DNA of 51,980 bases from a virus (taxonomy: Duplodnaviria > Caudoviricetes). This document shows, piece after piece, positions 3,312 to 19,378 of the stretch (the stretch's first letter is position 1; every line of letters begins with the position of its first letter). The notes beneath the pieces are model-generated. The model saw only the letters and a list, made by a program, of their open reading frames with translations, was not told the origin of the DNA and made no database searches. The DNA lies in the IMG/VR virus record IMGVR_UViG_3300037755_000190, positions 1 through 51,980 of that record. One strand, 5' to 3'. The position numbers and the translations under genes were made by a program.

Positions 3312-3651
3312 AAAGATCGCTGGTGGATCGCCCGCCGCTACTTACCTGTTCTTTAAGCTACAAGAAGAGCTAGGGGAGGTAACACAGGCTTTGAGTAAAT
3401 TCCTCATCCAAGTGGCCTTTCATCCTAACGACCCTGAAGAACAGGAAGAAGCACGCAAACGTCTCTCTGAAGAAATTGCTGATGTAATGGCTGTCTATGG
3501 TTTCATTGAGAAGTTGGGTTACATCAATGAAGAGGCGTTAGAAAAGAAGTACGCAGCCCGAGTAGACATTCTGGAAAAGAAGTTAGATAAGATCGCGAAG
3601 GAGTACACGGATAACAACGATACTGACGGACGGAAAACAAGTAGCGAGTGA
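3301..3651 (+). CDS. MazG-like nucleotide pyrophosphohydrolase
   Basis: KLQEELGEV...LSEEIADV is the EEXXE..EXXD all-alpha NTP-PPase signature. GAGG SD precedes ATG 3301. Confidence 0.75.
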   Translation: MTTKKIAGGSPAATYLFFKLQEELGEVTQALSKFLIQVAFHPNDPEEQEEARKRLSEEIADVMAVYGFIEKLGYINEEALEKKYAARVDILEKKLDKIAKEYTDNNDTDGRKTSSE

Positions 3652-4117
3652 CAGCCAGACATCTATTGGTAGTGAACGTTGCCCTGGAGAATGGTCGAAG
3701 GTGATAGTCGAAGGAGACCGTCTCTTTGCTTTCTCTGGGGCTACTTGTATGTTTGCACCGGCGATCAAATGGTACAAGAGTGGACTAGCAGCAGATCGGC
3801 CTAAGGTGGATGGCGACGAGTACAACCATACGCTTTGGGTGTTCGATCCAGACAGAGGCGCGCAGTGTTTCAACAATACCCATCAGAATCCCTATCCGGA
3901 AGTAGCTCATTTTCCTGCTGCAATGGGGAGTGGCGCCAAGTTTGCACTAGGGGCTTTCCACGCCGGAGCGTCCTTAACAGAGGCTGTCCAAATAGCCATA
4001 GCCCTCGACGTATTTAGTGGTGGCCCTGTAAAGGTAGTTGACATCCCACAAAAGACATTACCAATAGTTAAACAAACGCTGTGGGAGAGAATCAGCTATG
4101 TTGTCTGGGGACACTAG
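3611..4117 (+). CDS. Ntn-hydrolase (HslV/proteasome-beta-like) peptidase, probable ATA start
   Basis: Extending the ORF upstream of GTG 3701 gives (M)TTILTDGKQVASDSQ, the Thr1 Ntn signature; also AMGSGAKFALGA and A..LD..SGG. AAGGAG SD (3598-3603) lies 7 nt before ATA 3611, and there is an in-frame stop at 3584. Confidence 0.8.
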   Translation: MTTILTDGKQVASDSQTSIGSERCPGEWSKVIVEGDRLFAFSGATCMFAPAIKWYKSGLAADRPKVDGDEYNHTLWVFDPDRGAQCFNNTHQNPYPEVAHFPAAMGSGAKFALGAFHAGASLTEAVQIAIALDVFSGGPVKVVDIPQKTLPIVKQTLWERISYVVWGH

Positions 4118-4910
4118 AGTACGGGGTGAGTTTGGATGGAAATCGCTCTCTGAGGAGTACGGGAACCTCCACGCACCTACTAAGACAGGCAGGCGATACA
4201 CCTTTGGCCTAGCTAAGGGCTCTCATAGTAAGAAAACGTGGGATATCATAGCTTCCCGCCCGCACCTCTGGCCCTTGGTATCTGGTGAGGTGACTTATGA
4301 TCTTCGGGAGGGTGACGTTGTCCCCGCTAACAAGTCTGACTGTGGCTACTCTCCTGAGGGCTGGCTACACGGATACTTAAAGCGTGAGGGCTATTCAGGG
4401 GGCGTCTATACTCTTTATAAACAGTTCTACCGATGGACAGGACGCCTCCACCAGTTGTCTATTGATAAGTCGGTTGGATCAGACAAGACCGAATACAGGT
4501 TCCCTGATTTTACCTATCAACAGTGGCCTTACGAACTGGGGAAAACCTACGAAGGCGCTAAGTACGTAGGGTCTTTTATTCAGGGCTTTATGGACGCAGG
4601 GACATCCTTCGCGCAAGTTGCTTTCAACACCTCAGAGGCCGCTTGGTGGTTTTACGGCATGTGCCCTTTCGCAGGATACATAGCCTCCGGAGTTGTCCAC
4701 GAGACAAGAGTGAAAACACAGGCTACTCGCACGAAAGTAGGAGCCGCTGAGTTTCACACTGTCTACAAATTTTACTGTGCAAAGGGAAGCGATCACGCAG
4801 GGTTTAGGGTGCTCCAGATCGATCCTGTGGAGGGGCAGGGGTTGTATGTAGAGCGCGGCGAATTTCCCCAGCCTGCTTGCCTTGAGGGTGGTATACAAGC
4901 CCTTTTTTAG
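4098..4910 (+). CDS. free-standing intein-derived protein (Hint + degenerate LAGLIDADG)
   Basis: Block A-like MLSGDTRV..GWKSL, block B-like IIASRPHLWPL, DLREGDVV, LAGLIDADG-like WLHGYLKREG and FIQGFMDAG, and block F/G-like FRVLQIDP...LEGGIQ. Own GGGAG SD; in-frame stop at 4065. Confidence 0.7.
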   Translation: MLSGDTRVRGEFGWKSLSEEYGNLHAPTKTGRRYTFGLAKGSHSKKTWDIIASRPHLWPLVSGEVTYDLREGDVVPANKSDCGYSPEGWLHGYLKREGYSGGVYTLYKQFYRWTGRLHQLSIDKSVGSDKTEYRFPDFTYQQWPYELGKTYEGAKYVGSFIQGFMDAGTSFAQVAFNTSEAAWWFYGMCPFAGYIASGVVHETRVKTQATRTKVGAAEFHTVYKFYCAKGSDHAGFRVLQIDPVEGQGLYVERGEFPQPACLEGGIQALF

Positions 4911-4989
4911 TGTGAATACCTTAAATAGTTATGGTCAACGAAGCCCCGGAGTGGTACGCCAAAAAGGTTTATCGCAAAGGGGCTTTTTC

Positions 4990-5301
4990 ATGGCTAGGGC
5001 AGAATTACTTGTAGGCGTATCTGTCTGTTTCACCATCGTTTTCGGCGTTTTTGTAGCTTTACTGGTGCTTTACGTCCTGCGATTACGACGAGATATATCG
5101 CGATTGTTGATAACCCAAACGATCTTGAAAGCGCTTTACGATGACGATACACCTATTCCACAATTACCATATACATGGAGGGTTCCACCTGTTGGAGTGG
5201 AGGCTTCTCCTGGCTTCAAAAGTGTGGTCTTACCGTATCAAGGTCGCTCCGGAGGTGTGGTGGCCGATCTCAGAGGGACTGGCAGGGCCATGGGGAGTTG
5301 A
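4990..5301 (+). CDS. putative membrane protein
   Basis: N-terminal hydrophobic helix. It overlaps 5141..5503 in another frame, so its extent is uncertain. Confidence 0.45.
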   Translation: MARAELLVGVSVCFTIVFGVFVALLVLYVLRLRRDISRLLITQTILKALYDDDTPIPQLPYTWRVPPVGVEASPGFKSVVLPYQGRSGGVVADLRGTGRAMGS

Positions 5302-8758: not shown

Positions 8759-8856
8759 CAGTAATGGAGCTATTTACCACCTGCCCCCCGATAGGCTTAC
8801 TGACAGTGGCGTTGTGTGCCTTTGCTATGGGCTTGGGGATCGGTAGATTTCTATAG
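8755..8856 (+). CDS. 33-aa single-TM peptide
   Basis: ATGA overlap, GGAG SD; MTVMELFTTCPPIGLLTVALCAFAMGLGIGRFL*. Confidence 0.5.
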   Translation: MTVMELFTTCPPIGLLTVALCAFAMGLGIGRFL

Positions 8857-8931
8857 ACTGGGGTAGCTCAGTGGTAGAGCAAGCGGCGTATAACCGTTAG
8901 GTCGGGGGTTCGATGCCCTCCCTCAGTACCA
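8857..8931 (+). tRNA. tRNA-Ile (anticodon TAT), atypical G33
   Basis: Acceptor ACTGGGG/CCTCAGT, D-arm GCTC-AGTGGTA-GAGC, anticodon arm AGCGG-CGTATAA-CCGTT, T-arm GGGGG-TTCGATG-CCCTC, discriminator A plus CCA. Confidence 0.85.
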
Positions 8932-8934
8932 AAA

Positions 8935-9022
8935 GCTCGCGTGGCGGAATAGGTAGACGCGAGGGGCTTAAAACCCCTTATTCCTAGTGATTGTGAGGGT
9001 TCGAATCCCTTCGTGAGCACCA
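8935..9022 (+). tRNA. tRNA-Leu (anticodon TAA)
   Basis: Acceptor GCTCGCG/CGTGAGC, anticodon arm AGGGG-CTTAAAA-CCCCT, long variable arm, T-arm GAGGG-TTCGAAT-CCCTT, A plus CCA. Confidence 0.92.
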
Positions 9023-9243: not shown

Positions 9244-9505
9244 TTGTCACACTGGGTTGTCACACTACCAGAAATATGTTATCAATCAGCCCTCCCTAGT
9301 GAATAGCTAGACGAGGGTCTTTTCATGTCTATGTCGTTGAAATACCACGGATTTCCAGCCGAACCGATCTGAGCACGCCAGTGCGAATTCCGAGCCGAAG
9401 GCGAGGATATCTCCCCATGGGAGACAAGGTTCTATCGGAATTTCCTACGGTGCTTCAAGGGCTTAGATTCCCGCTTGCAACGCCTTGGCACAAGGATGTC
9501 ACAAT
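9244..9505. other. putative attP region
   Basis: Arm-type-like direct repeats TTGTCACACT x2 (9244-9253, 9257-9266), with TTGGCACAA and ATGTCACAAT (9485-9505) at the other end. Two inverted IHF-like sites (9331-9343, 9453-9465) and a central imperfect dyad TCTCC-CCATG-GGAGA. Lies immediately upstream of the integrase. Confidence 0.6.
9289..9323 (+). terminator. putative intrinsic terminator of the tRNA operon
   Basis: CCCTC-C-CTAG...CTAG-AC-GAGGG followed by TCTTTT. Confidence 0.5.
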
Positions 9506-10568
9506 GGCTACGTATCGCAAAAGAGGATCGACTTGGCAGGTTCAAATTAGGGTCAAGGGGCAATCGCCGCTTAGCCGTTCGTTCCCCACGAAAGCAGCCG
9601 GTCAAGCCTGGGCTGAGAGCGAGGAGAAAGCGTTGAAAGGGGGGACGATTAAAATTCCTCATGGCTATACCCTTGGTTGCCTATTGAGCGAATACCTAAC
9701 CGTCACTCAGTCTAGCACAGACAATGCCTTTATCAAAACGTTCATAAATAGGTGTCAGTTTTTAGATAAGCCACTCGCTAAGTTGATAGCTACGGACTTC
9801 TTAGCCTACAGAGACAGCCAACTTAAGACAGTAAAGAAAACTAGCTACAACAGGTCTATCAAGCCTATTATAGCAGCCTTTAGGTCAGCTATCGAGATGA
9901 AGCACTTTCCCGCCGATTGTGCAGATTGTCTCAAGGCCACAAAACTGAAAGCCAAGGCTACTAAGCGCAGAAGACGGTTCTGGGACCATGAAGAAAGAGC
10001 TTTTAGTACTGTCTGTAGCTGCCCTACTCTGGGGGCTGTGGTTGTGGTCCTTGTGGAAACAGCTATGCGGTCCGGTGAATTGTGGTTGGTAAAGAAACAG
10101 AACGTGAGGGACGGTATGATTTACATTCCAGAGGAAGACACAAAAACAAAAAGCCCCCGGACTATTGCGCTAAGTCCAAGGGCTCTTTCAGCGGTAGATA
10201 TTTTAATGGCACAAAGCGCTACCGAGAAACTGGTCTCACTAGGTGCTGGTGTCTTGAAGAAGAAGTTTAGAAAGGTGTGTCATCAGGCAGAGATAGTTAA
10301 TCTGCATATGCACGATCTGAGGCACGAAGCTTTGTCTAGGATGTCTGAGAAGGGCTTTGGTCCGGCTGAGATGATGTCTCAATCAGGTCATACACAACTC
10401 AATCAGCTAGGTGACTACATCCATGGCAACCCTCTGCTTATTCAGAAGAAGTTGCTAGCGATGTCACAGCTTGGAGGAAATCCTCTAGTGGAACCTGTGA
10501 TTTATTTAAGCCATCCCCGTAGTAGTACGAGTGTCCCGATGTTGTCGGAAGTCCAGCCCACTCCATAG
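9504..10568 (+). CDS. int: tyrosine integrase/recombinase
   Basis: AAGGA SD plus ATG 9504 (MATYRKRGSTWQVQIR). The catalytic set R (AMRSGEL), K (TKT), HxxR (HDLRH), H (SGH) and Y (DYIH) is intact. Confidence 0.93.
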   Translation: MATYRKRGSTWQVQIRVKGQSPLSRSFPTKAAGQAWAESEEKALKGGTIKIPHGYTLGCLLSEYLTVTQSSTDNAFIKTFINRCQFLDKPLAKLIATDFLAYRDSQLKTVKKTSYNRSIKPIIAAFRSAIEMKHFPADCADCLKATKLKAKATKRRRRFWDHEERAFSTVCSCPTLGAVVVVLVETAMRSGELWLVKKQNVRDGMIYIPEEDTKTKSPRTIALSPRALSAVDILMAQSATEKLVSLGAGVLKKKFRKVCHQAEIVNLHMHDLRHEALSRMSEKGFGPAEMMSQSGHTQLNQLGDYIHGNPLLIQKKLLAMSQLGGNPLVEPVIYLSHPRSSTSVPMLSEVQPTP

Positions 10569-11058: not shown

Positions 11059-13103
11059 TTTTTTCCTTCTCCCTCTCCTCCACTCGGGGGGTTGTCTTTC
11101 TCGAAGTTCCTAATCGCCCCTTCGCGCATTTTAGTCCAGAAGGAAGCTTCTTTAGGGGCCATCGTATTAATGCCCATTCCGTTGAACAGACCAAGCAGTT
11201 CTTTACTAATGTCCTGCCCATCGGCCTTGAGTATAGGCGCTAAGACAGCGATCTGCCTATTGAACTCCTGTACGGTCGCGTCAACGTTGTCTGTAAACTT
11301 GTTCTCTACACTTCGTAGAGCGCCAGCAAGGGGATTACGCCAGTCGCTTTTACGCTCAGAACCAGAGGTTACGTTGAACCTATTGGCGTCCTTATCATAA
11401 TCAATCTTGATATTAGGGCGCATAGTGACACCCTCTTGGATCGTATTGGCCATCTGACGGAACAAACCACCAAAGCTATCTAAGGTCCACTGCTTGTATT
11501 GGTTCCATGCCTGAGGGTCGGTGGCTTTCATCTTAACCATAGTCTTAGTTACCTCTGGAGAGGCTAGGCGAGTGTAGATGCCTGTCTTCTGTTCCGGTTT
11601 GATACCCGATAAGAAATCAGAGTTCTCCGGGCCAAACAAACTCTTAGCTGTATTTAAGACAATCTGAGGTGACGCTCTGGGATTAGTTATAACGTCAACG
11701 CGGTCTTTAATCTGCTGATACTGTAGCTTAGAACGAGTCGGCTTATCTACGTTAGTATGCTTATTGTCGTCCATGTCTTTCTTGAGGGAAGATGAATCTC
11801 CCGACATGCCCTTAGCCAAAGAGATATTACGGAGCTGTTGAGCTGCCACAGACTTCATCTTTTGCCCTTGAGGAGACAGTAGCATTTCGTCTAAAAGCTC
11901 TTGCCCACCCTGGTCCTTAACAGCTTGCATAATCCTGATTTGATCGGAGCTTTCAATAACCTTGCGGTTAGCTTCGTCTTTAAGAGCTTTAGTCCTGACT
12001 ATATCCGCATTAAGTACGCCGTACTCTTTATCGTTGAGTAGCTTCTCATAATAGTTAATACGATTAAGAGCTGTCTCCTGAATGTGCTTTATCTTCTCTG
12101 GGGACTTGATAGCGTTATAGTAGGTTGTCTGTCCGTCGGCCCATGGTTTCTCAAGGATACCCTGAACGCCTTGCTGTACCTTAAACTTCAACTCTGAGAA
12201 CTGTTGACGTAAAGCCATTTGCTCATCTGGGGTAAAGCTTTTGGGGTCTTTCCTAGCTTTATCCATGAGTAGAGTAAAGTTCTTAGAGGTATCTGCCGTA
12301 TCAAGGATAATACGATTGGTAAATCCAGTGACTTCATCTAACGCAGTACCGACAGATTGTTCTTCGGTAAGATTGCCCTGATCCTTAGCAAGTGCCAATC
12401 TGTTTCGTTTAAGCTCAACGGCTAGCTTCTCTTGGGCTCTTTCTTGAACATAAGCCCTTGTTTCAATCTTAGTATAGGCTTGCCCAGCATTCTGACGCTG
12501 GTAGTAGTCGGGAGGAAGGAACTCGTTATTAGTGTCTACGAAGGTATTGAACTTCTTCTCGTCTTCGTTCTTCTCCGCTAAGGTTGATGTCCATTCTTTA
12601 CGTTTAGCTTCAATCGCCGCCGCAGCAGGACGATGACCAAGAGCAGATGTAACTTGCGCCTCAATCTTGTCTGCGTAAGCTGGATACCTTGCTCTTGCCT
12701 GCTTAACCATAGCATCCATTTGAGACCAGTACTGTGAGGCACTGATACGGCCTTCCGAATAGGCTTGGGTTATCTTCTTACCCGTAGTACCTATACGCTG
12801 GATGTCTGTGTTAGCAGCCGGATCGGCTGGAGCCTCTGGTTTAACTAGAGTATCGCCTGCCTCACCTCCTGAGATTGCAGATACGCCAGTAGAATCTGTA
12901 GTCGTACTGTCAACGATCCCCTGAGCAATCTTATCTGCTTCAGCTTTCTGTTGTGTCTCATGGAAGTCTGACTTAAGCTCAATCCCCTGGGCAATACCAG
13001 TGAAGAGCTTTTTCATAGCCTTGTTACCGTCCCCTTCTTTGGAGTACCCAATATAGCTAGGATCATTTGCGCCTTGTACCTCAGCGCCGAACGCTTTAAC
13101 CAT
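11052..13103 (-). CDS. internal virion (ejection) protein
   Basis: 683-aa helical Q/K/D-rich protein, last gene of the late arm after the giant virion protein. Confidence 0.75.
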   Translation of the reverse strand: MVKAFGAEVQGANDPSYIGYSKEGDGNKAMKKLFTGIAQGIELKSDFHETQQKAEADKIAQGIVDSTTTDSTGVSAISGGEAGDTLVKPEAPADPAANTDIQRIGTTGKKITQAYSEGRISASQYWSQMDAMVKQARARYPAYADKIEAQVTSALGHRPAAAAIEAKRKEWTSTLAEKNEDEKKFNTFVDTNNEFLPPDYYQRQNAGQAYTKIETRAYVQERAQEKLAVELKRNRLALAKDQGNLTEEQSVGTALDEVTGFTNRIILDTADTSKNFTLLMDKARKDPKSFTPDEQMALRQQFSELKFKVQQGVQGILEKPWADGQTTYYNAIKSPEKIKHIQETALNRINYYEKLLNDKEYGVLNADIVRTKALKDEANRKVIESSDQIRIMQAVKDQGGQELLDEMLLSPQGQKMKSVAAQQLRNISLAKGMSGDSSSLKKDMDDNKHTNVDKPTRSKLQYQQIKDRVDVITNPRASPQIVLNTAKSLFGPENSDFLSGIKPEQKTGIYTRLASPEVTKTMVKMKATDPQAWNQYKQWTLDSFGGLFRQMANTIQEGVTMRPNIKIDYDKDANRFNVTSGSERKSDWRNPLAGALRSVENKFTDNVDATVQEFNRQIAVLAPILKADGQDISKELLGLFNGMGINTMAPKEASFWTKMREGAIRNFEKDNPPSGGEGEGKKR

Positions 13104-16100
13104 TATTCTTCTTCTGCCTGTCCACTAATCATTTCCCTACGTGCCTCAGACTGCCCTACAGGAGCCTTGCGCCAAAAGTCCTCGCGTACCGCGTTAAATA
13201 AGTTCTCGTGTCCCTTGACAGCGCCACGAAGGATAGCGCCGTGCTTAGATGGGTTAATACCACTGGACACCAACCATGCTTTAGCTCTCTTAAGGTAGCC
13301 ATCTCCTAATTCCTGATTTCCATCGGTGTATTCAGAGATCGCCTTACGATACCATTTCTGCACTTCTTTGACTGCTGCGTCTTCAGCCTTACGTTGCTCT
13401 TTACGTGACTGGATCATTATGAAGGTATCACCAACATCTCTATTCGTGAGTCCCATAGCACCGGACATAAAGGCATCAAAGCCAGTCGCGTTATCGACAA
13501 CAACCGTACCATTCCGTGTAAAGTAACGTCCCTGATTATAGAGATACCATGCTTTCGCCGCGTTATTGATAGACGATATGTTGCGAGTAACTTCTAGGAA
13601 GTCCTCCATAGTGGGAGGCGCTACGCTTTCGTCAAAAAGAGACATAAGAGCAGCCGTAGCCGGTTCAGCCGATTTGATCATATCACCTATGATAGAACCA
13701 GACGCGCCCAGCAATAAATCTATGACTGTCTTCTCACCACTGATGGCATCTTTGAAAAGACTCGTACCACCTGGACCGTAACGTTCCGAGACGTTGTACT
13801 GCTTGCCAGTGGCCACAGAGAGCATGGTAGAGAGCAAACCATCGTGCATAGCCTGGATAGCTACATTGTCCATAGGGACGCCACGCTCTAGGGCTGCTTG
13901 TCGGATATCCTCATAGTAAGGCCATACGCCCGCACCCGCACCAGCGGCTACAGGAACCCCGTACACGGCTGCATAGGTCATATAGGCTTGACGCTTCTCA
14001 GCGCCTGATAGGCGACTCCCCCAGCCCGGCAAGAGCTGTTCTGCTAGGCGTGCCTGGAAAGCTAGGAACTGCGTAGGAATGCCCACGATGCCTTGCTGCC
14101 ACGCTGCGTTAGAAGCCCTAGTCATATTGGCTGCCATCAGATCGGCTCGCTTAAGCACTTGGTTACGTGCAGCGTTATCCATTACAGCCTTTGGGTTAAG
14201 ATCCCTCCAAGCGTAGTAAGCAGCGTTCCAAGCAGACAAGCGGACAAAGCGTTCACCCTCGTCGAAGAACATCGTGCCCTTCTCTAAGAAGGTGCCAAAG
14301 GTTCCCTTAAACAAGTTAGGGTCGAACACGTCGTCACGCCAAGCCACTTCGCCACCAACATTGTAGTAGCCAGTCCTACGCATCTCTGCATAGGATTCTT
14401 TGAAATGATCGGCGTTGCTAGACCACCTCGCGAACTGATTGATAATGTTTTCGTCTTCAGTCAGCCGGAGCATACGCATACGAATAGCGTCACCAGCACC
14501 CCTGATAGCCATCTGAGGGCCAGCGATAGCCATGACGTGTACAAAAGACTGTGCCTGTAACGCTAACTGGACTGGATTAAACAAGCCTAGTTTAGTATGG
14601 AAGGCAATGGATCGAGCGTAAGTGAAAGGGTCTTTGACCGTAGGAAGTAAGTTCTCTGTTACATAGTCAGAAGCTTTTTGCCCTAACCGAGTGTAAACCT
14701 GATCGACAATCTTATTCTGAAGCCACATCATCTTTGAGCTAAGATCGGAACTAGCCCCAATGAACATGATGTTAGCTCTGCGTGTGTTCTGTGCAGCGGC
14801 TAATAACGCTTTGTTCTTTGTCTCCGTATCCCAGACAGGATTATGGAAGTAATAGATAGGATTGCGCCGTAGTTCCTCGGGAGTCGTCTTCATCACAGAC
14901 CAGAACTCGTTGATAAAGTTCTCCACGGCGGTCGTCTTATAATCATTCATGTGACGACTACGCGAGACGTTGGCAATAGCCTTATTGAGCGTGTCCAGGG
15001 GAGACAGGAGCCGTGGTTTATCTAATTGAAAGATCGGCTTGGATTCAGTGCCCAATTCTTGTACACGCGGCAAGTCGGGATCGCGGGAGCCCAGATACTT
15101 CTTGTCAACATTCTGTGCGAATAGATTGTATTTGGAACGCACACCGTTAAAGAACCCTTCGTACTGACGAAAAGCCCCCTTGAAGTGTTCCATGTCCGAA
15201 GTGTTACGCCCAGCCGCTGTCCATGTAATAGGATCGTCCATATGCAGCAACGCAGGTCTAATAGTTCCATCAGGCATCACCTTAGAACTAAAGAACGACT
15301 TGAAGGTCTCAATATCCCAAGGTGTATTCTGGTATAGGAAGGTCTTTAGAGCGTCCATTTTATTGTCACGAAGCAGTAACCTAGCGTCGTCTGCCGCTTG
15401 GGCGTAACGCTTAGCCTCAACCTCAGTGGCGACATTTAAGAGGGACGTATCGCCTTCATAGATGTGCCGTAGTGAGCCCGAGGCTGTAGACCGACGCAGA
15501 TTAGGCTGCTTGATAAAAAACTTGTCGCCATACTCGACGTGACCACCCGGACGGTAAGGCAGAATGTTCCAATCAAACTTAGCGTTCTCAAAGTTCTTTA
15601 CGACAGCAAAGTGAATGGTTTCCGTAGTGCCCGCTACATCCAAAAGAGGTTTCTCTAGTGGGTTAACAATCTCGACTACTTTAAACCCACGATCCTTAAC
15701 GTTGCCGTCTAGTGTGTCTCGCACGTCTTGTGTCAATTGAGAGCGTAGGAAAAACTCGCCCTTGTTCTTCTTGGCTGGATCATAGAGCCAAACACCAAAG
15801 TCCTCGGAACCATCATCCCAAGGTATACGATCATTAAGCCGCCCTGCGAACTGTCGAGACGCCTTAGTCTGGGCTTGCCCTAGTTCATCTGTTGTCTGGT
15901 AGAAGATAGTTGTCTTCTCTGCACCCATACGGGCCAAGTCACGATGAAGGGCTAAGTTACGGAGGATGTAATCCATGTCGTAAAGTTGCGTGTAGGTAAA
16001 GTATGCCTCGATCTGCTTTTCACTGGGCTGTTGCTTGAACCTATCAAAGAACGCGTTCTCGAATTCACCGATAGTCGTATGGAACAGACCACGCTCCCCA

Positions 16101-19100
16101 CTAGATTCATCGATGTAATCTCTGTTCTTCTCCCAGATTGTGTTAAGCTGGCTCTTTTCCTTCTTAGTCAAATCCTTGCGTAGCACCTTAGACGCATCCA
16201 ACATCAAACGATGGATCTCTTGAGCCGCTGTGGTCGCTAGCTGACGATTAGAGTTGGCCAATGTGCTTAGTAGATCATCTGGCGTCCTGATAAGACCGAG
16301 GAAAGTGTTTAAGATGCCCTTCGGGCTAGTGTTATCTGTGGAGACAATAAGATCACGCACACTGTCTAGCGTCTCGTCAACGCTTTTGGCAATGTTGATA
16401 TAGAAACCGTCGCCCTGCTGCAAGATGCTAAACTGATTAGGCTTAAGACCGTACATGTCAGTGCCGAATAGAGCCGCCTGAGCCGGATTGTCAAATAGAC
16501 TACCGTCTGCCTTACCCATACGAAGATGGACAACAGTGGTGTTAACTAACTGATCTTCCGGGCGCGTAACTGAGAAAGGACCGCCAAAGGAGACATCAAG
16601 GAAGGCATCATTAACATGTGTGTAGGTTGTCTTGAGGACACCTTTTGCTTCCTCAATAGCCTTCTGTAAAGCCTCGGCTGGTAATCTAACGATAGCCGAG
16701 TTGTTAAGGGGTATACCTAACAGTTTGACAGCGTTACGCTTAAGAGCCGCTAGAACACGATCAGACTTCGCCTTGGTTAGCGATTGTCCGTTGGAGGCAA
16801 CTTCGTCAACGTTAAAGATAGATGGTGTTAGCTTAACTAGATTGCGACTATCGTCTAGAGGGTCTCCACCTCTCCAGGCTTGTCTTGCCCTACCATAGAC
16901 ATCAAGAGAAACAGCAGCATCAGACATACCAGCTTCCGCTAGGACACCATCACCTGTCTCCATCATGCCAGCACGACTTGTTGCTTTGAAGCTGTTCTTT
17001 ATCTGCTCAGCGTCACCAGCCTTTTTAGCGTACAGCTCATTAAGAGCCAATTCGTTTATTAAGGCTTCATAGCTCTGTAAGGTCTGACCAGATTGCTTTG
17101 GGTTGCCATACTTGAGCTTTGCTTTCTCCGTGTTGAAGTAAATCCACTCATCAGCGTTAGCAAAGTCATCGTCCGCCATCTGACCACCCATCTTGCGCCA
17201 GGCTTTCAGCTCGTACTGCTTACGCAAAGAGTCTTCGTCTACTATAACAGTGCGTGTGGCTTCGTCGTAGTACGCATAGCCTTGACCCTTGGGGGTAGGC
17301 TTAGTCTTCACAGGCAAATTTGTAACTGGATCGGTTGGAATCGTCTTTGTCGGGGGCATTAGAGGCGGCGCTTTTACCACCACCGGAGGCTCCCTGACAG
17401 CGGTAGGCTTACGGCGGTTCTTGATAGTGTAGGGAATAGGTTCGGGAGACTGCCCCATAGCGATGTTACGGGAGGTCTGGAGCCCAGCCTTTAGGCGTTC
17501 TTTGTAGAGCTTAGTTAGTGCCAGGGCATTAATAATATTCTCGTATTGAGCAGTGGTTTGCCCCTTGGCCTGAAGAACAACGGCGTGGGCCGTCTCGTGC
17601 CAAAGAACAAACTCCGTCATAGCACCAATGTCGTCAATTAGCGCTTTTGGAACGAAGTTGGCACCGGGATAAAACGGCTCGTTTTTAGCAAAACGCCTTT
17701 CCGCTTCAGCCGAAAAATACCACGGATCGAGACCAACATTGTGTCTCGCTACTACTTTACCCTTGCTCTTGGTAGGGCTATAAGCGTAAATCGCGTCATC
17801 TTGTTTATATGTGTATGTTGGCCAGGGCTTAAATCTGTCGTCCAGAAAGTCTAATGCTTTAGCGTCCTGCCAAGGCTCAACAACAGTATCTTTAAGAAGC
17901 GATCGTATGGCGTCATCTACATACTTTTCGTCGTTGAGAGAGCCGCTAAGAATAGAGCGACCAATGCCAGCGCCCCGCATAAAGGAATAGAGAGCATCTT
18001 TACCACCTTTGTACGCCTTTTCAAAGAAATCCATATTAGTGTCTAGCGCAGGTGAAACACGATCTACTATATCTGTTAGATTAATAGAAATCTGCTGTGT
18101 GGTCTTTGGAAACTCTCCATAGTCTCTGGCAGAACCAAAACTGAAAGTCCCATCTTCATCTGCGTAACGCACTTTATCGTGGCGAGTATAGTGGTATGTC
18201 GCATTACCGTTCTCATAGGTAATCTTTATGTCGGGTGCGTTTTGACCTTGAGGCCCTATTGTCTCTGGAGCCTGACGGACGGGACTTGTTGGCGCGCCTT
18301 CAGACGCAACCTCTGTAGTGTTCCTGAAAGCTAAACGCTTCTTGATACTATCGGCGACCGTTTGTCCAACCGTCTTACCAACCTTGCCCGTCACTTCAGC
18401 CACTTTAGAGACATCAACAGCAAGTTTAGCTGGCTTAAGGAAGGGTAGGAACGATGTCATGTCCAGAGCACCAAAGGTGTTATCTAGGAGCTGATCGTTG
18501 CTGGAATAGTTAATGACACCCTGAGCAAAGCTTAGAGCGTCTAATGGACTATCTTCCGCGATCTTACGGACAGCAAGTTCTAACTGCGTCTTAAACTCAG
18601 AGGGGCGCAGTGTGTATAGGTATTCTACTTCCTCAGAGATTGTATTACCAAAGAGGAGACCACCCGTCAAAGGAGCGGCGGCAACAGCGCCAGTAAGATT
18701 TGTGTAAGCCCAGAAGGGAATAATTTGCTTTGCGTAAGCGAGAGCGGTCCCTCCGATGCCTGTTTGCTTCCACTCGTGCTCTGCATCCTCAAGGACAGCC
18801 TTAGCTATCTGATTGCGAGCGATGAGTTTGACCGCCGCGTCTGAGGCGTCTAGGTACTCCCAAGGAAGCTTATTTAGCGCCTCTTGGTGATTGCTTTGCC
18901 CGTTGATAAGGGAGGGAATAGTTGAGACAACCCACTCACCGTACATCTCCTCAAGCACGGTCTTAGGATCGCTTGCCGTCGAACTACCTACGATGCCCAT
19001 CAGCTCGTCGGCCTCTGAAGTTGTCAGGGGGCGGTTAATGGTGCTAGTGATCTCTTGGACCATCCCCAGGCGCATCTTACGGTCCTCAAGGCTCTTGGAG

Positions 19101-19378
19101 GCTGCTAGGGCCTGTCTGAGTTCGGGCTCGTCTCCATTCGCTAGCTGATTGACAATGCTGTCGTAGCCAGGGGATTTTGCCCCCATAGCGAAGTTAGCCT
19201 TGGTAGCACGCCTAGCGATAACGTCGGGATCGGTACTAGGGCTAGTCGTTAGCCCCCCAGGCGAAGACATGTCGAGATCATAGTAAAGGTTCTCAGCAAC
19301 AGGACCGCCAGCTTGCGCTTCTTCGGAAATGTCAACATCAATGAACTGAGTATCAACCCCAGGCGGCTTAAGTTCCAA
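13103..19378 (-). CDS. giant internal virion (ejection) protein with zincin-like HExxH insert
   Basis: 2091 aa in the T7 gp16-like position; FVLWHETAH motif at 17585-17611. Confidence 0.8.
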   Translation of the reverse strand: MELKPPGVDTQFIDVDISEEAQAGGPVAENLYYDLDMSSPGGLTTSPSTDPDVIARRATKANFAMGAKSPGYDSIVNQLANGDEPELRQALAASKSLEDRKMRLGMVQEITSTINRPLTTSEADELMGIVGSSTASDPKTVLEEMYGEWVVSTIPSLINGQSNHQEALNKLPWEYLDASDAAVKLIARNQIAKAVLEDAEHEWKQTGIGGTALAYAKQIIPFWAYTNLTGAVAAAPLTGGLLFGNTISEEVEYLYTLRPSEFKTQLELAVRKIAEDSPLDALSFAQGVINYSSNDQLLDNTFGALDMTSFLPFLKPAKLAVDVSKVAEVTGKVGKTVGQTVADSIKKRLAFRNTTEVASEGAPTSPVRQAPETIGPQGQNAPDIKITYENGNATYHYTRHDKVRYADEDGTFSFGSARDYGEFPKTTQQISINLTDIVDRVSPALDTNMDFFEKAYKGGKDALYSFMRGAGIGRSILSGSLNDEKYVDDAIRSLLKDTVVEPWQDAKALDFLDDRFKPWPTYTYKQDDAIYAYSPTKSKGKVVARHNVGLDPWYFSAEAERRFAKNEPFYPGANFVPKALIDDIGAMTEFVLWHETAHAVVLQAKGQTTAQYENIINALALTKLYKERLKAGLQTSRNIAMGQSPEPIPYTIKNRRKPTAVREPPVVVKAPPLMPPTKTIPTDPVTNLPVKTKPTPKGQGYAYYDEATRTVIVDEDSLRKQYELKAWRKMGGQMADDDFANADEWIYFNTEKAKLKYGNPKQSGQTLQSYEALINELALNELYAKKAGDAEQIKNSFKATSRAGMMETGDGVLAEAGMSDAAVSLDVYGRARQAWRGGDPLDDSRNLVKLTPSIFNVDEVASNGQSLTKAKSDRVLAALKRNAVKLLGIPLNNSAIVRLPAEALQKAIEEAKGVLKTTYTHVNDAFLDVSFGGPFSVTRPEDQLVNTTVVHLRMGKADGSLFDNPAQAALFGTDMYGLKPNQFSILQQGDGFYINIAKSVDETLDSVRDLIVSTDNTSPKGILNTFLGLIRTPDDLLSTLANSNRQLATTAAQEIHRLMLDASKVLRKDLTKKEKSQLNTIWEKNRDYIDESSGERGLFHTTIGEFENAFFDRFKQQPSEKQIEAYFTYTQLYDMDYILRNLALHRDLARMGAEKTTIFYQTTDELGQAQTKASRQFAGRLNDRIPWDDGSEDFGVWLYDPAKKNKGEFFLRSQLTQDVRDTLDGNVKDRGFKVVEIVNPLEKPLLDVAGTTETIHFAVVKNFENAKFDWNILPYRPGGHVEYGDKFFIKQPNLRRSTASGSLRHIYEGDTSLLNVATEVEAKRYAQAADDARLLLRDNKMDALKTFLYQNTPWDIETFKSFFSSKVMPDGTIRPALLHMDDPITWTAAGRNTSDMEHFKGAFRQYEGFFNGVRSKYNLFAQNVDKKYLGSRDPDLPRVQELGTESKPIFQLDKPRLLSPLDTLNKAIANVSRSRHMNDYKTTAVENFINEFWSVMKTTPEELRRNPIYYFHNPVWDTETKNKALLAAAQNTRRANIMFIGASSDLSSKMMWLQNKIVDQVYTRLGQKASDYVTENLLPTVKDPFTYARSIAFHTKLGLFNPVQLALQAQSFVHVMAIAGPQMAIRGAGDAIRMRMLRLTEDENIINQFARWSSNADHFKESYAEMRRTGYYNVGGEVAWRDDVFDPNLFKGTFGTFLEKGTMFFDEGERFVRLSAWNAAYYAWRDLNPKAVMDNAARNQVLKRADLMAANMTRASNAAWQQGIVGIPTQFLAFQARLAEQLLPGWGSRLSGAEKRQAYMTYAAVYGVPVAAGAGAGVWPYYEDIRQAALERGVPMDNVAIQAMHDGLLSTMLSVATGKQYNVSERYGPGGTSLFKDAISGEKTVIDLLLGASGSIIGDMIKSAEPATAALMSLFDESVAPPTMEDFLEVTRNISSINNAAKAWYLYNQGRYFTRNGTVVVDNATGFDAFMSGAMGLTNRDVGDTFIMIQSRKEQRKAEDAAVKEVQKWYRKAISEYTDGNQELGDGYLKRAKAWLVSSGINPSKHGAILRGAVKGHENLFNAVREDFWRKAPVGQSEARREMISGQAEEE

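Follow-up and report, generated by a model that had tools for sequence, protein, structure and literature searches.

The window (the whole stretch of viral DNA that was analysed, 51 980 nucleotides in length) carries an intein homologue that has no exteins and stands as a gene of its own. Its product aligns with inteins inserted in phage ribonucleotide reductase (RNR) genes, is predicted to keep their fold and no longer has the residues used in splicing. The explanation that we prefer as a whole is that it descends from such an intein, that the host gene was lost and that the surviving frame was exapted as a non-catalytic binder; we regard this account as evenly poised between acceptance and doubt.

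Gene organization

The gene and its surroundings are described in Table 1. A six-frame search with the protein's own profile matched positions 4098-4904 (E = 8.9e-91) and nothing else in the record, and the idea that this genome has a further copy or a different intein was rejected. An initial annotation of the DNA had assigned the gene its own Shine-Dalgarno sequence and an in-frame stop upstream, and had concluded that exteins are absent. All of this holds: no ATG, GTG or TTG lies between the upstream TAG and the start codon, and in the orthologue at locus L008 the gene is likewise free of exteins. The reading frame starts at an ATG of its own and stops at the +1 position, and the protein thus fails one criterion for an intein, in-frame insertion in a host protein.

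Vestigial exteins were rejected, as a six-frame search with PF02867 gave no candidate anywhere in the record. The stop is followed by a Cys codon (TAG TGT), which is one codon out of register for a +1 Cys and was treated as chance. Frameshift fusion with the upstream peptidase was discounted, the gene having its own Shine-Dalgarno sequence and ATG and the fused form having no nucleophile at the junction.

Table 1. Positions, in the window, of the intein-like gene, its parts and its neighbours
Feature	Position	Strand	Description	Basis
HslV-like peptidase gene (phrog_1040)	3587..4117	+	Thr-Thr nucleophile motif; upstream neighbour	
In-frame TAG	4065..4067	+	33 nt upstream of ATG; excludes N-extein	Read from sequence
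GGGAGAG Shine-Dalgarno-like motif	4083..4089	+	8 nt 5' of ATG	Sequence; function inferred
Stand-alone intein-homologue gene	4098..4910	+	270 aa plus TAG stop; ATG start	ORF list, sequence
Overlap of gene start with peptidase gene 3' end	4098..4117	+	20 nt, frame +1 relative to peptidase	
Hint N-terminal half	4098..4343	+	Residues 1-82: block A with Met for Cys1, block B S-R-P-H, TYDLREGD	Alignment, model
Inserted two-lobed LAGLIDADG domain	4344..4796	+	Residues 83-233	Fold matches
LAGLIDADG helix 1	4353-4391	+	Ends K-R-E-G	
LAGLIDADG helix 2	4557-4601	+	Ends M-D-A-G	
Hint C-terminal half	4797..4907	+	Residues 234-270: block F without Cys or His, block G GGIQALF without Asn	
Hairpin and U-run	4940..4990	+	Directly 3' of gene; probable intrinsic terminator at the end of the DNA-metabolism operon	RNA fold

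The intein-like gene is the final gene of a DNA-metabolism operon. The peptidase gene before it has no canonical start codon, with ATA at 3587 or 3611. The hairpin that follows it has a folding energy of -32.6 kcal/mol (z -4.1), equalled by none of 200 shuffled sequences, and L008 has the same terminator-like feature (z -5.4); a simple terminator scan did not pick up the hairpin at 4940-4990.

Sequence motifs

Eleven RNR-embedded inteins, cut from their loci, were compared with 11 close stand-alone orthologues. M1 occupies the column of Cys1, which is Cys in all 11 embedded inteins, so that the criterion of an N-terminal nucleophile is failed. Across 29 stand-alone rows (28 cluster representatives and L008), Met fills this column in 21 and the terminal Asn is kept in one. 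The segment S53-R-P-H56 aligns with the T-R-x-H of block B, in which Thr and His are both present in 11/11 embedded inteins. Ser is the commonest residue in the Thr column of the orthologues (4/11) and His is found in nine of them; Thr-x-x-His is therefore not satisfied either. TYDLRxGD is common to both groups. At the C-terminus GGIQALF-stop aligns with GGIDTYN/C, and the expected Asn or Gln followed by Cys, Ser or Thr at +1 is missing.

Both LAGLIDADG helices can be aligned, WLHGYLKREG with ..HGFVFGDG. and FIQGFMDAG with FIRGWIAADG. The catalytic position of motif 1 is Glu97 in the window protein, Gln in 8/11 orthologues and Asp in every embedded intein; that of motif 2 is Gly in the window protein, most commonly Ala in the orthologues (6/11, with no majority for Asp) and again Asp in all 11 embedded inteins. 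An acidic residue ending each helix, the mark of a homing endonuclease, is thus not found. Cys1, the block B Thr, both Asp residues and the block F Cys are invariant in the embedded inteins (11/11) and variable in the 11 orthologues, as are the strand residues Q103/R105/C107 and R201/Q203/R205. R96, H233, C261, P55 and W89 are invariant in 11/11 orthologues and differ from the embedded inteins.

Alignment to the embedded inteins upholds the earlier reading of block A with Met at Cys1, of SxxH in block B, of DLREGD and of an end without Asn. Both LAGLIDADG motifs had been described as lacking the canonical DG; in the window protein the acid is missing from motif 2 alone, motif 1 still being Glu-Gly (E97-G98). 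The broader inference that neither splicing nor homing seems possible is supported, the splicing residues being gone and the endonuclease acids not conserved. Splicing is impossible since there are no exteins and since the nucleophile, the block B Thr, the block F Cys and the terminal Asn are unconserved in the family. Because the LAGLIDADG acids are not kept by the family, we infer, without cleavage data, that cutting DNA is not its conserved activity.

The window protein itself keeps Glu97 at the catalytic position of motif 1, an observation that speaks against its being nuclease-dead.

Predicted structure

The predicted fold is a Hint domain split by a two-lobed LAGLIDADG domain. The AlphaFold model was built from 40 sequences (pLDDT 90.9, pTM 0.89) and supersedes one from six sequences that was too weak (pLDDT 63.9) and with which Foldseek gave no hits at E <= 0.001. 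With the 40-sequence model Foldseek gave seven hits at this threshold, all of them intein homing endonucleases, and the best 27 of 48 161 chains in a structure search are all Hint domains. The match to the gp41-1 intein (Z 12.8, rmsd 2.5, 107 residues aligned) meets the criterion of a Hint fold, and full-protein matches cover residues 1..270, the insert being looped out. For residues 83-233 the matches are to I-DmoI (Z 7.1, 125 aligned), to I-Tsp061I (Z 6.9) and to WhiA (Z 5.8); helices 86-96 and 154-167 of the model, with their flanking strands, satisfy the criterion of a two-lobed LAGLIDADG architecture. The check that had been proposed for a Hint domain with inserted LAGLIDADG, by AlphaFold and Foldseek, has therefore given a structural match.

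Homologues

A profile of the window protein and five homologues, with 55 invariant columns among the six sequences, had 100 matches at E <= 0.001, among them inteins in phage RNR at a ...NN/C site. Among long hits that were scanned, Ribonuc_red_lgC adjoins the match in 8/10. The embedded relatives have Cys1 after NN/C and a terminal Asn or Gln followed by Cys+1; given the number of hits and these features, homology to inteins is not a matter of chance. The best match in BFVD is an RNR large subunit (E = 8e-17). The suggested resemblance to RNR-type inteins is thus confirmed, the nearest relatives being inteins of phage RNR genes.

In a tree, a branch with SH-aLRT support of 98 separates 27 of 28 stand-alone cluster representatives from 69 embedded inteins, so that the stand-alone proteins make up a cohesive family with at least 27 clusters at 50% identity. 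The tree was made quickly and has no root, with SH-aLRT as its only support, and shared catalytic loss could group degenerate sequences artificially. The 11 orthologues have pI values of 7.06-9.15, compared with 5.67-6.32 for 10/11 embedded inteins; this basic character is not shared by the other stand-alone clades (pI 5.4-9.4).

Searches of general resources were uninformative. The window protein matched no family in Pfam (E <= 1) or PHROGs, and Pfam found nothing in nine of ten other stand-alone members, the tenth (P0058) having one sub-threshold LAGLIDADG_3 hit. A sequence-profile search of the PDB gave no hits at E <= 10, tblastn no match in 50 697 phage records, and a pattern scan of genome contigs 13 hits of which none was confirmed. 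A search of viral contigs for stand-alone contexts with the family alignment returned two loci, both RNR-embedded, and context searches with P0016 alone and with P0023 alone returned none. The genomic context of the stand-alone gene is known for two genomes and is inferred for two more from equal-sized contigs.

Proposed loss of the RNR host gene

The phage lineage is one of podoviruses of roughly 51-52 kb, distant relatives of the Zobellviridae. The initial annotation had seen no RNR gene in the window and had suggested that the intein-like gene survives from a lost host gene. The first point is secure, as the 52 kb record is rated 100% complete and has no match to PF02867 or PF13597. The second is favoured by gene position: Lentibacter phage ICBM2 has RNR directly after a MazG-like gene, and in L003, a phage with RNR and an intein, RNR closes the same rightward module, downstream of a phosphoesterase.

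We propose that the ancestor was a LAGLIDADG-bearing intein at the ...NN/C site of a phage RNR large-subunit gene. The host gene would have been lost in the lineage and the intein reading frame would have survived independently. That the frame now coincides with the ends of the intein, with Met for Cys1 and a stop for the +1 Cys, is directly seen, and the protein keeps the whole Hint and LAGLIDADG fold, shows family-specific invariant residues and is basic.

Retention of the reading frame

L008 is the syntenic stand-alone orthologue whose existence had been set as a check on domestication; it is intact and 37% identical to the window protein, compared with 52-75% for the core enzymes beside the gene. 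Saturation of synonymous sites in the only pair of DNAs compared precluded a dN/dS estimate: dS is 2.5 or more, or saturated, for neighbouring genes, and by NG86 is saturated or undefined for the intein-like gene and most neighbours. The probability that a random frame of 270 codons stays open is 2.3e-6, and the frames are intact in all 29 stand-alone rows, at identities down to about 20%. The intein frame thus appears to have been recruited for a new role, by exaptation rather than decay, and the domestication that had been suggested is supported both by L008 and by the cohesion of the 27 clusters.

Function

The present role that we favour, with a confidence somewhat short of even, is that of a non-catalytic binder of nucleic acid, most likely DNA; this is inferred, with no binding data. 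The LAGLIDADG saddle would bind the nucleic acid and the Hint domain would act as a scaffold. The task may be a regulatory or DNA-handling one in phage replication, for which WhiA and nuclease-dead LAGLIDADG maturases offer parallels by analogy. The putative DNA-reading strand residues vary among the orthologues, which argues against one shared conserved target site. One DNA sequencing run, probably its source, contains this stretch, and no RNA run is listed with it. More tentative, taken jointly, is a fuller version, in which the whole intein was exapted after RNR loss, the family is old and the new invariant residues reflect a nucleic-acid-binding or metal-binding function exercised with the HslV-like peptidase; R96 at the former metal site, H233 and C261 would build that function.

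Alternatively, the protein might act through protein contacts alone, as partner, regulator, adaptor or substrate of the translationally coupled peptidase, which we consider unlikely. HslV-type peptidases normally require a partner, as is established for HslUV. The overlap of the two genes is kept in the window and, at 32 nt, in L008 though the proteins differ by 48-63%. The longest contigs of the peptidase homologues P0118 and P0119 are equal in size to those of P0003 (51126) and P0006 (8042), and from the genetic code we infer that the YVVSGH tail of P0118 and the MLSADT start of P0003 could be encoded by the same nucleotides. Adjacency by itself is weak evidence, and compact phage genomes often have genes that overlap slightly; we know of no Hint or LAGLIDADG feature that docks on HslV, and L003 has an RNR-embedded intein without an adjoining HslV-like gene. 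A complex prediction for the peptidase and the intein-like protein scored 0.01, which counts neither for nor against a contact.

Free-standing phage homing genes often abut conserved genes, and this gene both abuts and overlaps one. It could be a selfish homing element that cuts with a non-canonical active site and spreads beside its target, for example the overlapped peptidase gene; the retained Glu97-Gly98 of motif 1 would fit, and variable DNA-contact strands would suit changing targets. A precedent is found in yeast, where free-standing intein-derived endonucleases home next to a host gene (WHO/HO; PMC7282813, as far as the accessible part of that paper goes). We judge a phage counterpart of WHO to be quite unlikely. 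The motif 2 acid is absent in 11/11 orthologues and the motif 1 acid is replaced by Gln in 8/11; synteny in two phages with similarly diverged neighbours points to vertical descent; there is a single copy per record; and the 27 stand-alone clusters form one old group, not recent invasions.

Nuclease-dead LAGLIDADG proteins are established as intron maturases, and the basic pI would also be compatible with an RNA binder that aids RNA folding or processing. This is improbable, as the only structured RNAs that Rfam finds in the 52 kb record are two tRNAs; with no intron among the matches, a role as maturase of a phage intron was rejected as well.

That the gene is a functionless relic, left after RNR loss and persisting because deletion pressure is low or because the overlap imposes a dual-coding constraint, is very improbable. 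In its favour, the catalytic features are all eroded, the protein evolves faster than the adjoining enzymes and no function emerged from Pfam, PHROGs or the PDB sequence search. Against it, the frame is open throughout the 29 rows and at 37% identity where the synonymous sites of neighbours are saturated, the six profile sequences share their 55 invariant columns, the stand-alone group has invariant residues peculiar to it, the confidence of the predicted fold is high and the overlap spans just 20 of the 813 nt.

Significance

Inteins are usually seen as pure parasites that invade, decay and are lost, with yeast HO as the textbook exception. A complete intein frame that outlived its host gene and persists as a conserved family of phage genes, cut exactly at the splice junctions, would be a clear instance of a selfish protein element that changed its role and, if the fuller version of exaptation given above is true, the first counterpart of HO/WHO in a prokaryotic virus, yet nuclease-dead. 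A literature search confined to titles and abstract openings, with most subscription journals outside its scope, found no account of a phage or bacterial intein gene without exteins. The system would allow tests of what a Hint-LAGLIDADG scaffold can do after the loss of both chemistries, and a compact, stable, nuclease-dead LAGLIDADG scaffold may be of engineering interest. It also flags a family of 'hypothetical proteins' missed by Pfam in 11/11 members tested and by PHROGs in the one member scanned there, the window protein, and suggests that an intein can mark the former site of a lost gene.

Comparison with known systems

The RNR-embedded phage inteins (site ...YYAGR..NN/C(F/Y)LL; among L001-L014, L022, L023 and P0012-P0024) are homologous along their entire length, with 24-30% identity and a nearly identical TYDLRxGDVVPAN; they have the Hint-LAGLIDADG-Hint order and the end points in common with the stand-alone protein, and occur in related podovirus modules. 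In contrast, the stand-alone form has no exteins, its catalytic residues, including the terminal Asn/Gln, are lost or unconserved, about 15-20 residues are deleted between blocks A and B, and its pI is basic where that of the embedded form is acidic.

As far as the accessible part of the source describes them, the HO and WHO proteins of yeast are likewise products of free-standing, intein-descended genes that combine Hint-like and LAGLIDADG parts and do not splice, but they are active site-specific nucleases with a zinc-finger domain (PMC7282813). The phage protein ends in the intein's last column, with no zinc finger, and its family is without the catalytic acids. HO and WHO are from yeast, whereas the phage gene is viral and prokaryotic.

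PI-PfuI (Z 12.6, 245 residues aligned), PI-SceI (Z 11.4, 244) and TliVMA (Z 11.5, 243) share the architecture of the whole protein; they differ in being larger (366-454 residues, with extra DNA-recognition regions), host-embedded and catalytically competent.

WhiA is a further case of a nuclease-dead LAGLIDADG scaffold in a non-cleaving role, and matches the model weakly over residues 83-228 (8dy9_I, Z 5.8; 3hyi_A, Z 5.4). Its C-terminal domain is a helix-turn-helix, and it lacks a Hint domain. The phage protein has no sequence relationship to it, no hit to Pfam LAGLIDADG_WhiA and no residues past the Hint C-terminal half.

The bacterial intein-like (BIL) and hedgehog Hint domains (2lwy, Z 11.3; 1at0, Z 10.7) also use the Hint fold outside classical splicing. 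They keep the N-terminal nucleophile, process an attached polypeptide and, unlike the phage protein, have no LAGLIDADG insert.

Gene boundaries and neighbours

The intein-like protein is the product of a free-standing gene at the end of a DNA-metabolism operon, in a record of 51,980 bases with a completeness rating of 100%. An in-frame TAG lies upstream, no ATG, GTG or TTG occurs in frame between it and the ATG start, and GGGAGAG precedes the ORF, which bears out the initial annotation of an extein-less gene with its own start. The start overlaps by 20 nt, in a different frame, the 3' end of a gene matching the PHROG 'peptidase HslV family' (phrog_1040, E 3.8e-22). Directly 3' of the intein-like gene is a strong hairpin with a long loop and a U-run, not detected by a simple terminator scan; a similar structure (at about 8836-8885) follows the corresponding gene of L008, a syntenic relative on a contig of 52,099 bases. 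Folding gives z-scores of -4.1 and -5.4, respectively, and none of 200 shuffles was as stable in either case.

The peptidase gene has no ATG, GTG or TTG ahead of its Thr-Thr nucleophile motif. Of two ATA codons, one aligns with Met1 of P0116, a homologue (MRRSTKITT...), and the other is preceded by AGGAG at a distance of 7 nt; either translation begins at ATA or the start codon has been damaged. The gene is shortened by gene callers, to 138 aa by the ORF lister and 122 aa in the database version.

Coordinates of features in the window
Feature	Position	Strand	Remark
Exonuclease/endonuclease module	0.7-4.9 kb		continues from primase/helicase and polymerase
Peptidase segment lacking ATG/GTG/TTG	3584-3720		
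TAG preceding peptidase frame	3584-3586		
ATA aligned with Met1 of P0116	3587		
Second ATA	3611		
GTG used by ORF lister	3701		
In-frame TAG	4065-4067	+	upstream of intein-like ORF
GGGAGAG	4083-4089	+	ahead of intein-like ORF
Intein-like ORF	4098-4910	+	ATG start, 270 residues
Hairpin and U-run	4940-4990		
tRNA-Ile(TAT), tRNA-Leu(TAA)	8857-9022		
Tyrosine integrase gene	9381-10568		just downstream of tRNAs
Structural genes	about 10.4-34.9 kb	opposite	
2,091-aa ORF	13103-19378	opposite	among structural genes
Primase/helicase, DNA polymerase	46.7-51.1 kb		

Stand-alone and embedded relatives

The window protein has no match in Pfam at E <= 1, in PHROGs at E <= 0.1, in the PDB by sequence at E <= 10 or, by tblastn, in 50,697 phage records. 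A word-indexed protein search identified five unnamed homologues of 266-275 aa (39-64% identity), three of them encoded by contigs 51-52 kb or 8 kb long; all six proteins begin Met-Leu and share 55 invariant columns. A profile of the six, searched against 1.84 billion representatives, returned 100 proteins at E <= 0.001 (eight at E <= 1e-30). Some are proteins of 244-305 aa aligned end to end, others long proteins of up to 2,195 aa with the matching stretch in their interior. When ten of the long matches were compared with Pfam, eight carried a ribonucleotide reductase (RNR) barrel domain adjoining the match, one had ferredoxin-type matches and one had no family at all.

The embedded matches start right after ...NN, many with Cys first, and end ...N or ...Q, followed by Cys as the first residue of the RNR sequence C(F/Y)LL..DTRE; some more distant ones have no Cys at the start, by an offset estimate only. 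From loci in viral and metagenome collections 11 complete embedded copies were excised by coordinates, all situated in phage RNR genes between ...YYAGR....NN and C. The proposed resemblance to phage RNR inteins is therefore upheld. Phage RNR genes can also carry a second intein, after ...ETLRNA (L001 7393-8190, L010, P0012 from residue 551), which has no position 1 nucleophile, since it starts with Pro, not Cys or Ser, when compared with intein-less RNRs (...LRNACTEV...).

Loss of the splicing and nuclease residues

The embedded copies were compared with 11 close stand-alone orthologues (P0001-P0010 and L008) in a 40-row alignment.

Residues in embedded inteins and stand-alone orthologues (11 sequences each)
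Position	Embedded	Stand-alone orthologues
1	Cys 11/11	Met 11/11
Block B Thr	Thr 11/11 (A-T-R-x-H-H-W)	variable, commonest Ser 4/11
Block B His	His 11/11	His 9/11
LAGLIDADG motif 1 acid	Asp 11/11 (..FGDG..)	Gln 8/11; window protein Glu
LAGLIDADG motif 2 acid	Asp 11/11 (..AADG..)	commonest Ala 6/11; window protein Gly
Block F Cys	Cys 11/11 (V-Y/F-C)	variable, commonest Val 5/11
LAGLIDADG strands, two lobes (Q-x-R-x-C, R-x-Q-x-R)	invariant	variable

All 11 embedded inteins end in Asn or Gln, a terminal Asn being found in only one of 29 stand-alone rows. The start Met occupies the Cys1 column in 21 of these rows and lies one residue earlier in five; 11 stop at, or one residue short of, the terminal-Asn column, 13 stop one residue later and five are extended by 2-20 residues. 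Since the termini fall at or near the ends of the embedded inteins, the gene is the reading frame of the intein, trimmed to the splice junctions. Arg96, His233, Cys261, Pro55 and Trp89 are invariant in the orthologues, not in the embedded inteins; the Arg96 column, adjoining the former metal-binding Asp, is Gly in all 11 of the latter. The window protein is basic; the orthologues have a pI of 7.06-9.15, against 5.67-6.32 for 10 of the 11 embedded copies.

These data show that the window protein cannot splice and that its family has not preserved the LAGLIDADG active site. Of the two LAGLIDADG motifs in the window protein, only motif 2 is without its acid; Glu97 remains at motif 1.

A deeper stand-alone clade (P0022-P0030, P0033, P0044, P0054 and P0070) retains, between blocks A and B, a CPxTG segment that is deleted in the clade of the window protein. 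Several members still have ..ADG at motif 2, most end with Asp one residue past the Asn column, and P0030 and P0033 lack block A entirely.

Predicted structure

Modelling from six sequences gave a poor result (pLDDT 63.9), whereas the 40-row alignment gave a confident model (pLDDT 90.9, pTM 0.89), in which the predicted fold is that of a complete intein. Among 48,161 PDB representatives the best 27 chains were Hint domains (inteins, a BIL domain and hedgehog), led by gp41-1 (Z 12.8). The intein homing endonucleases PI-PfuI (Z 12.6, 245 aligned), PI-SceI (Z 11.4, 244 aligned) and TliVMA (Z 11.5, 243 aligned) match over most of the protein. Residues 83-233 resemble the monomeric double-LAGLIDADG proteins I-DmoI (Z 7.1, 125 aligned) and I-Tsp061I (Z 6.9), and also WhiA (Z 5.4-5.8). 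The model thus agrees with the Hint domain and inserted LAGLIDADG region that had been read from the sequence. Foldseek gave seven PDB matches at E <= 0.001, all intein endonucleases. The best 50 matches in BFVD were all intein-carrying proteins of 518-1,174 aa, headed by an RNR large subunit (E 8e-17, TM 0.71 by query), and included no stand-alone protein of this size; in the ESM Atlas residues 1-270 aligned to phage RNR and other intein hosts.

Maintenance of the gene

L008 contains an intact homologue of 269 aa, its gene overlapping the peptidase gene by 32 nt. Identity to the window is 37% for this protein, compared with 74% for the primase/helicase fragment, 65% for DNA polymerase, 71% for the Cas4-like exonuclease, 55% for Endonuclease I, 75% for the metallophosphoesterase, 26% for the MazG-like protein and 52% for the HslV-like peptidase. 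Synonymous sites are saturated (NG86 dS at least 2.5 or undefined in neighbouring genes), so no dN/dS value can be given. With such saturation and a random-frame chance of 2.3e-6, a neutral frame of 270 codons would have closed.

A quick maximum-likelihood tree was calculated from 97 rows (28 stand-alone, 69 embedded), omitting seven of 104 proteins, namely the fragments P0011, P0041 and P0075 and four long matches covering fewer than 150 profile positions. On this unrooted tree from a short search, a branch supported at SH-aLRT 98 separates 27 of the 28 stand-alone rows from the embedded inteins. At least two changes between stand-alone and embedded states are required, and shuffled labels require 24 on average. 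Shared loss of catalytic residues may influence the grouping. The family is old and conserved. The exception, P0058, has 305 aa and comes from the record of a Neorhizobium chromosome; it nests among embedded inteins and keeps both LAGLIDADG motifs (..GDG and ..ADG). It is a second, independent stand-alone homologue and may be a bacterial example of an intein-derived endonuclease that is both free-standing and active.

Absence of RNR and a proposed lost host gene

Six-frame searches of the whole record found no match to PF02867 (class I/II RNR barrel) or PF13597 (class III RNR), the controls being positive in 12 and 6 of 14 genomes, respectively; the absence of RNR noted initially is confirmed to this extent. 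The intein-like profile matched the record once. By DNA polymerase the closest cultured phages are roseobacter and Lentibacter podoviruses of Zobellviridae (35-42% identity). Lentibacter phage ICBM2 has the order primase/helicase, polymerase, ..., exonuclease, endonuclease, ..., MazG-like, RNR, glutaredoxin, ..., terminator. The window has this order too, with MazG followed by the HslV-like gene, the intein-like gene and the hairpin that resembles a terminator. This evidence is positional only, because the ICBM2 RNR is without an intein and of a different subtype. In L003, L004 and L005, where RNR carries the intein, the RNR gene is preceded, at a distance of about 1.7 kb, by a homologue of the window phosphoesterase (34-37% identity), and in L006, L012 and L013 an endonuclease I homologue is upstream of RNR. 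With RNR at the equivalent position in three comparisons, the idea that an RNR gene was lost from where the stand-alone gene now lies is supported, not proven.

Compared with the usual Zobellviridae-like gene order, the window is circularly permuted. No T7-type RNA polymerase was noticed among ORFs of at least 120 aa, without a dedicated search. The phage is probably temperate, given the tRNAs just upstream of the integrase gene.

Function and comparison with known systems

With modest confidence we take non-catalytic DNA binding as the most likely function. Nucleic-acid binding of this kind is a tentative inference, somewhat short of an even chance and without binding data, in which the LAGLIDADG saddle would hold nucleic acid without cutting it. 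The strand residues with which homing enzymes recognize bases differ from one orthologue to another, and this argues against a single conserved DNA target. The protein may also act together with the HslV-like peptidase. For the family as a whole, some remaining nuclease or homing activity is unlikely; for the window protein, with Glu97 kept, it is not excluded. An RNA-maturase role is disfavoured, since Rfam finds no intron in the record.

Four of five defining features of inteins were tested and are not met. The protein is not an intein by definition, nor is it a canonical LAGLIDADG endonuclease. The original observation is confirmed and its interpretation, domestication, supported. We found no description of extein-less intein genes in phages or bacteria, although full-text coverage was incomplete. 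For a LAGLIDADG scaffold without nuclease activity the nearest parallel is WhiA, which has no Hint domain. The closest concept is that of yeast HO and its WHO relatives, likewise free-standing, intein-derived and non-splicing; these are active nucleases with a zinc-finger domain (PMC7282813). Domesticated intein or LAGLIDADG proteins are a known kind, to which the present genes add a new family, so far without annotation, in which an entire intein has been exapted to form a phage gene of its own.
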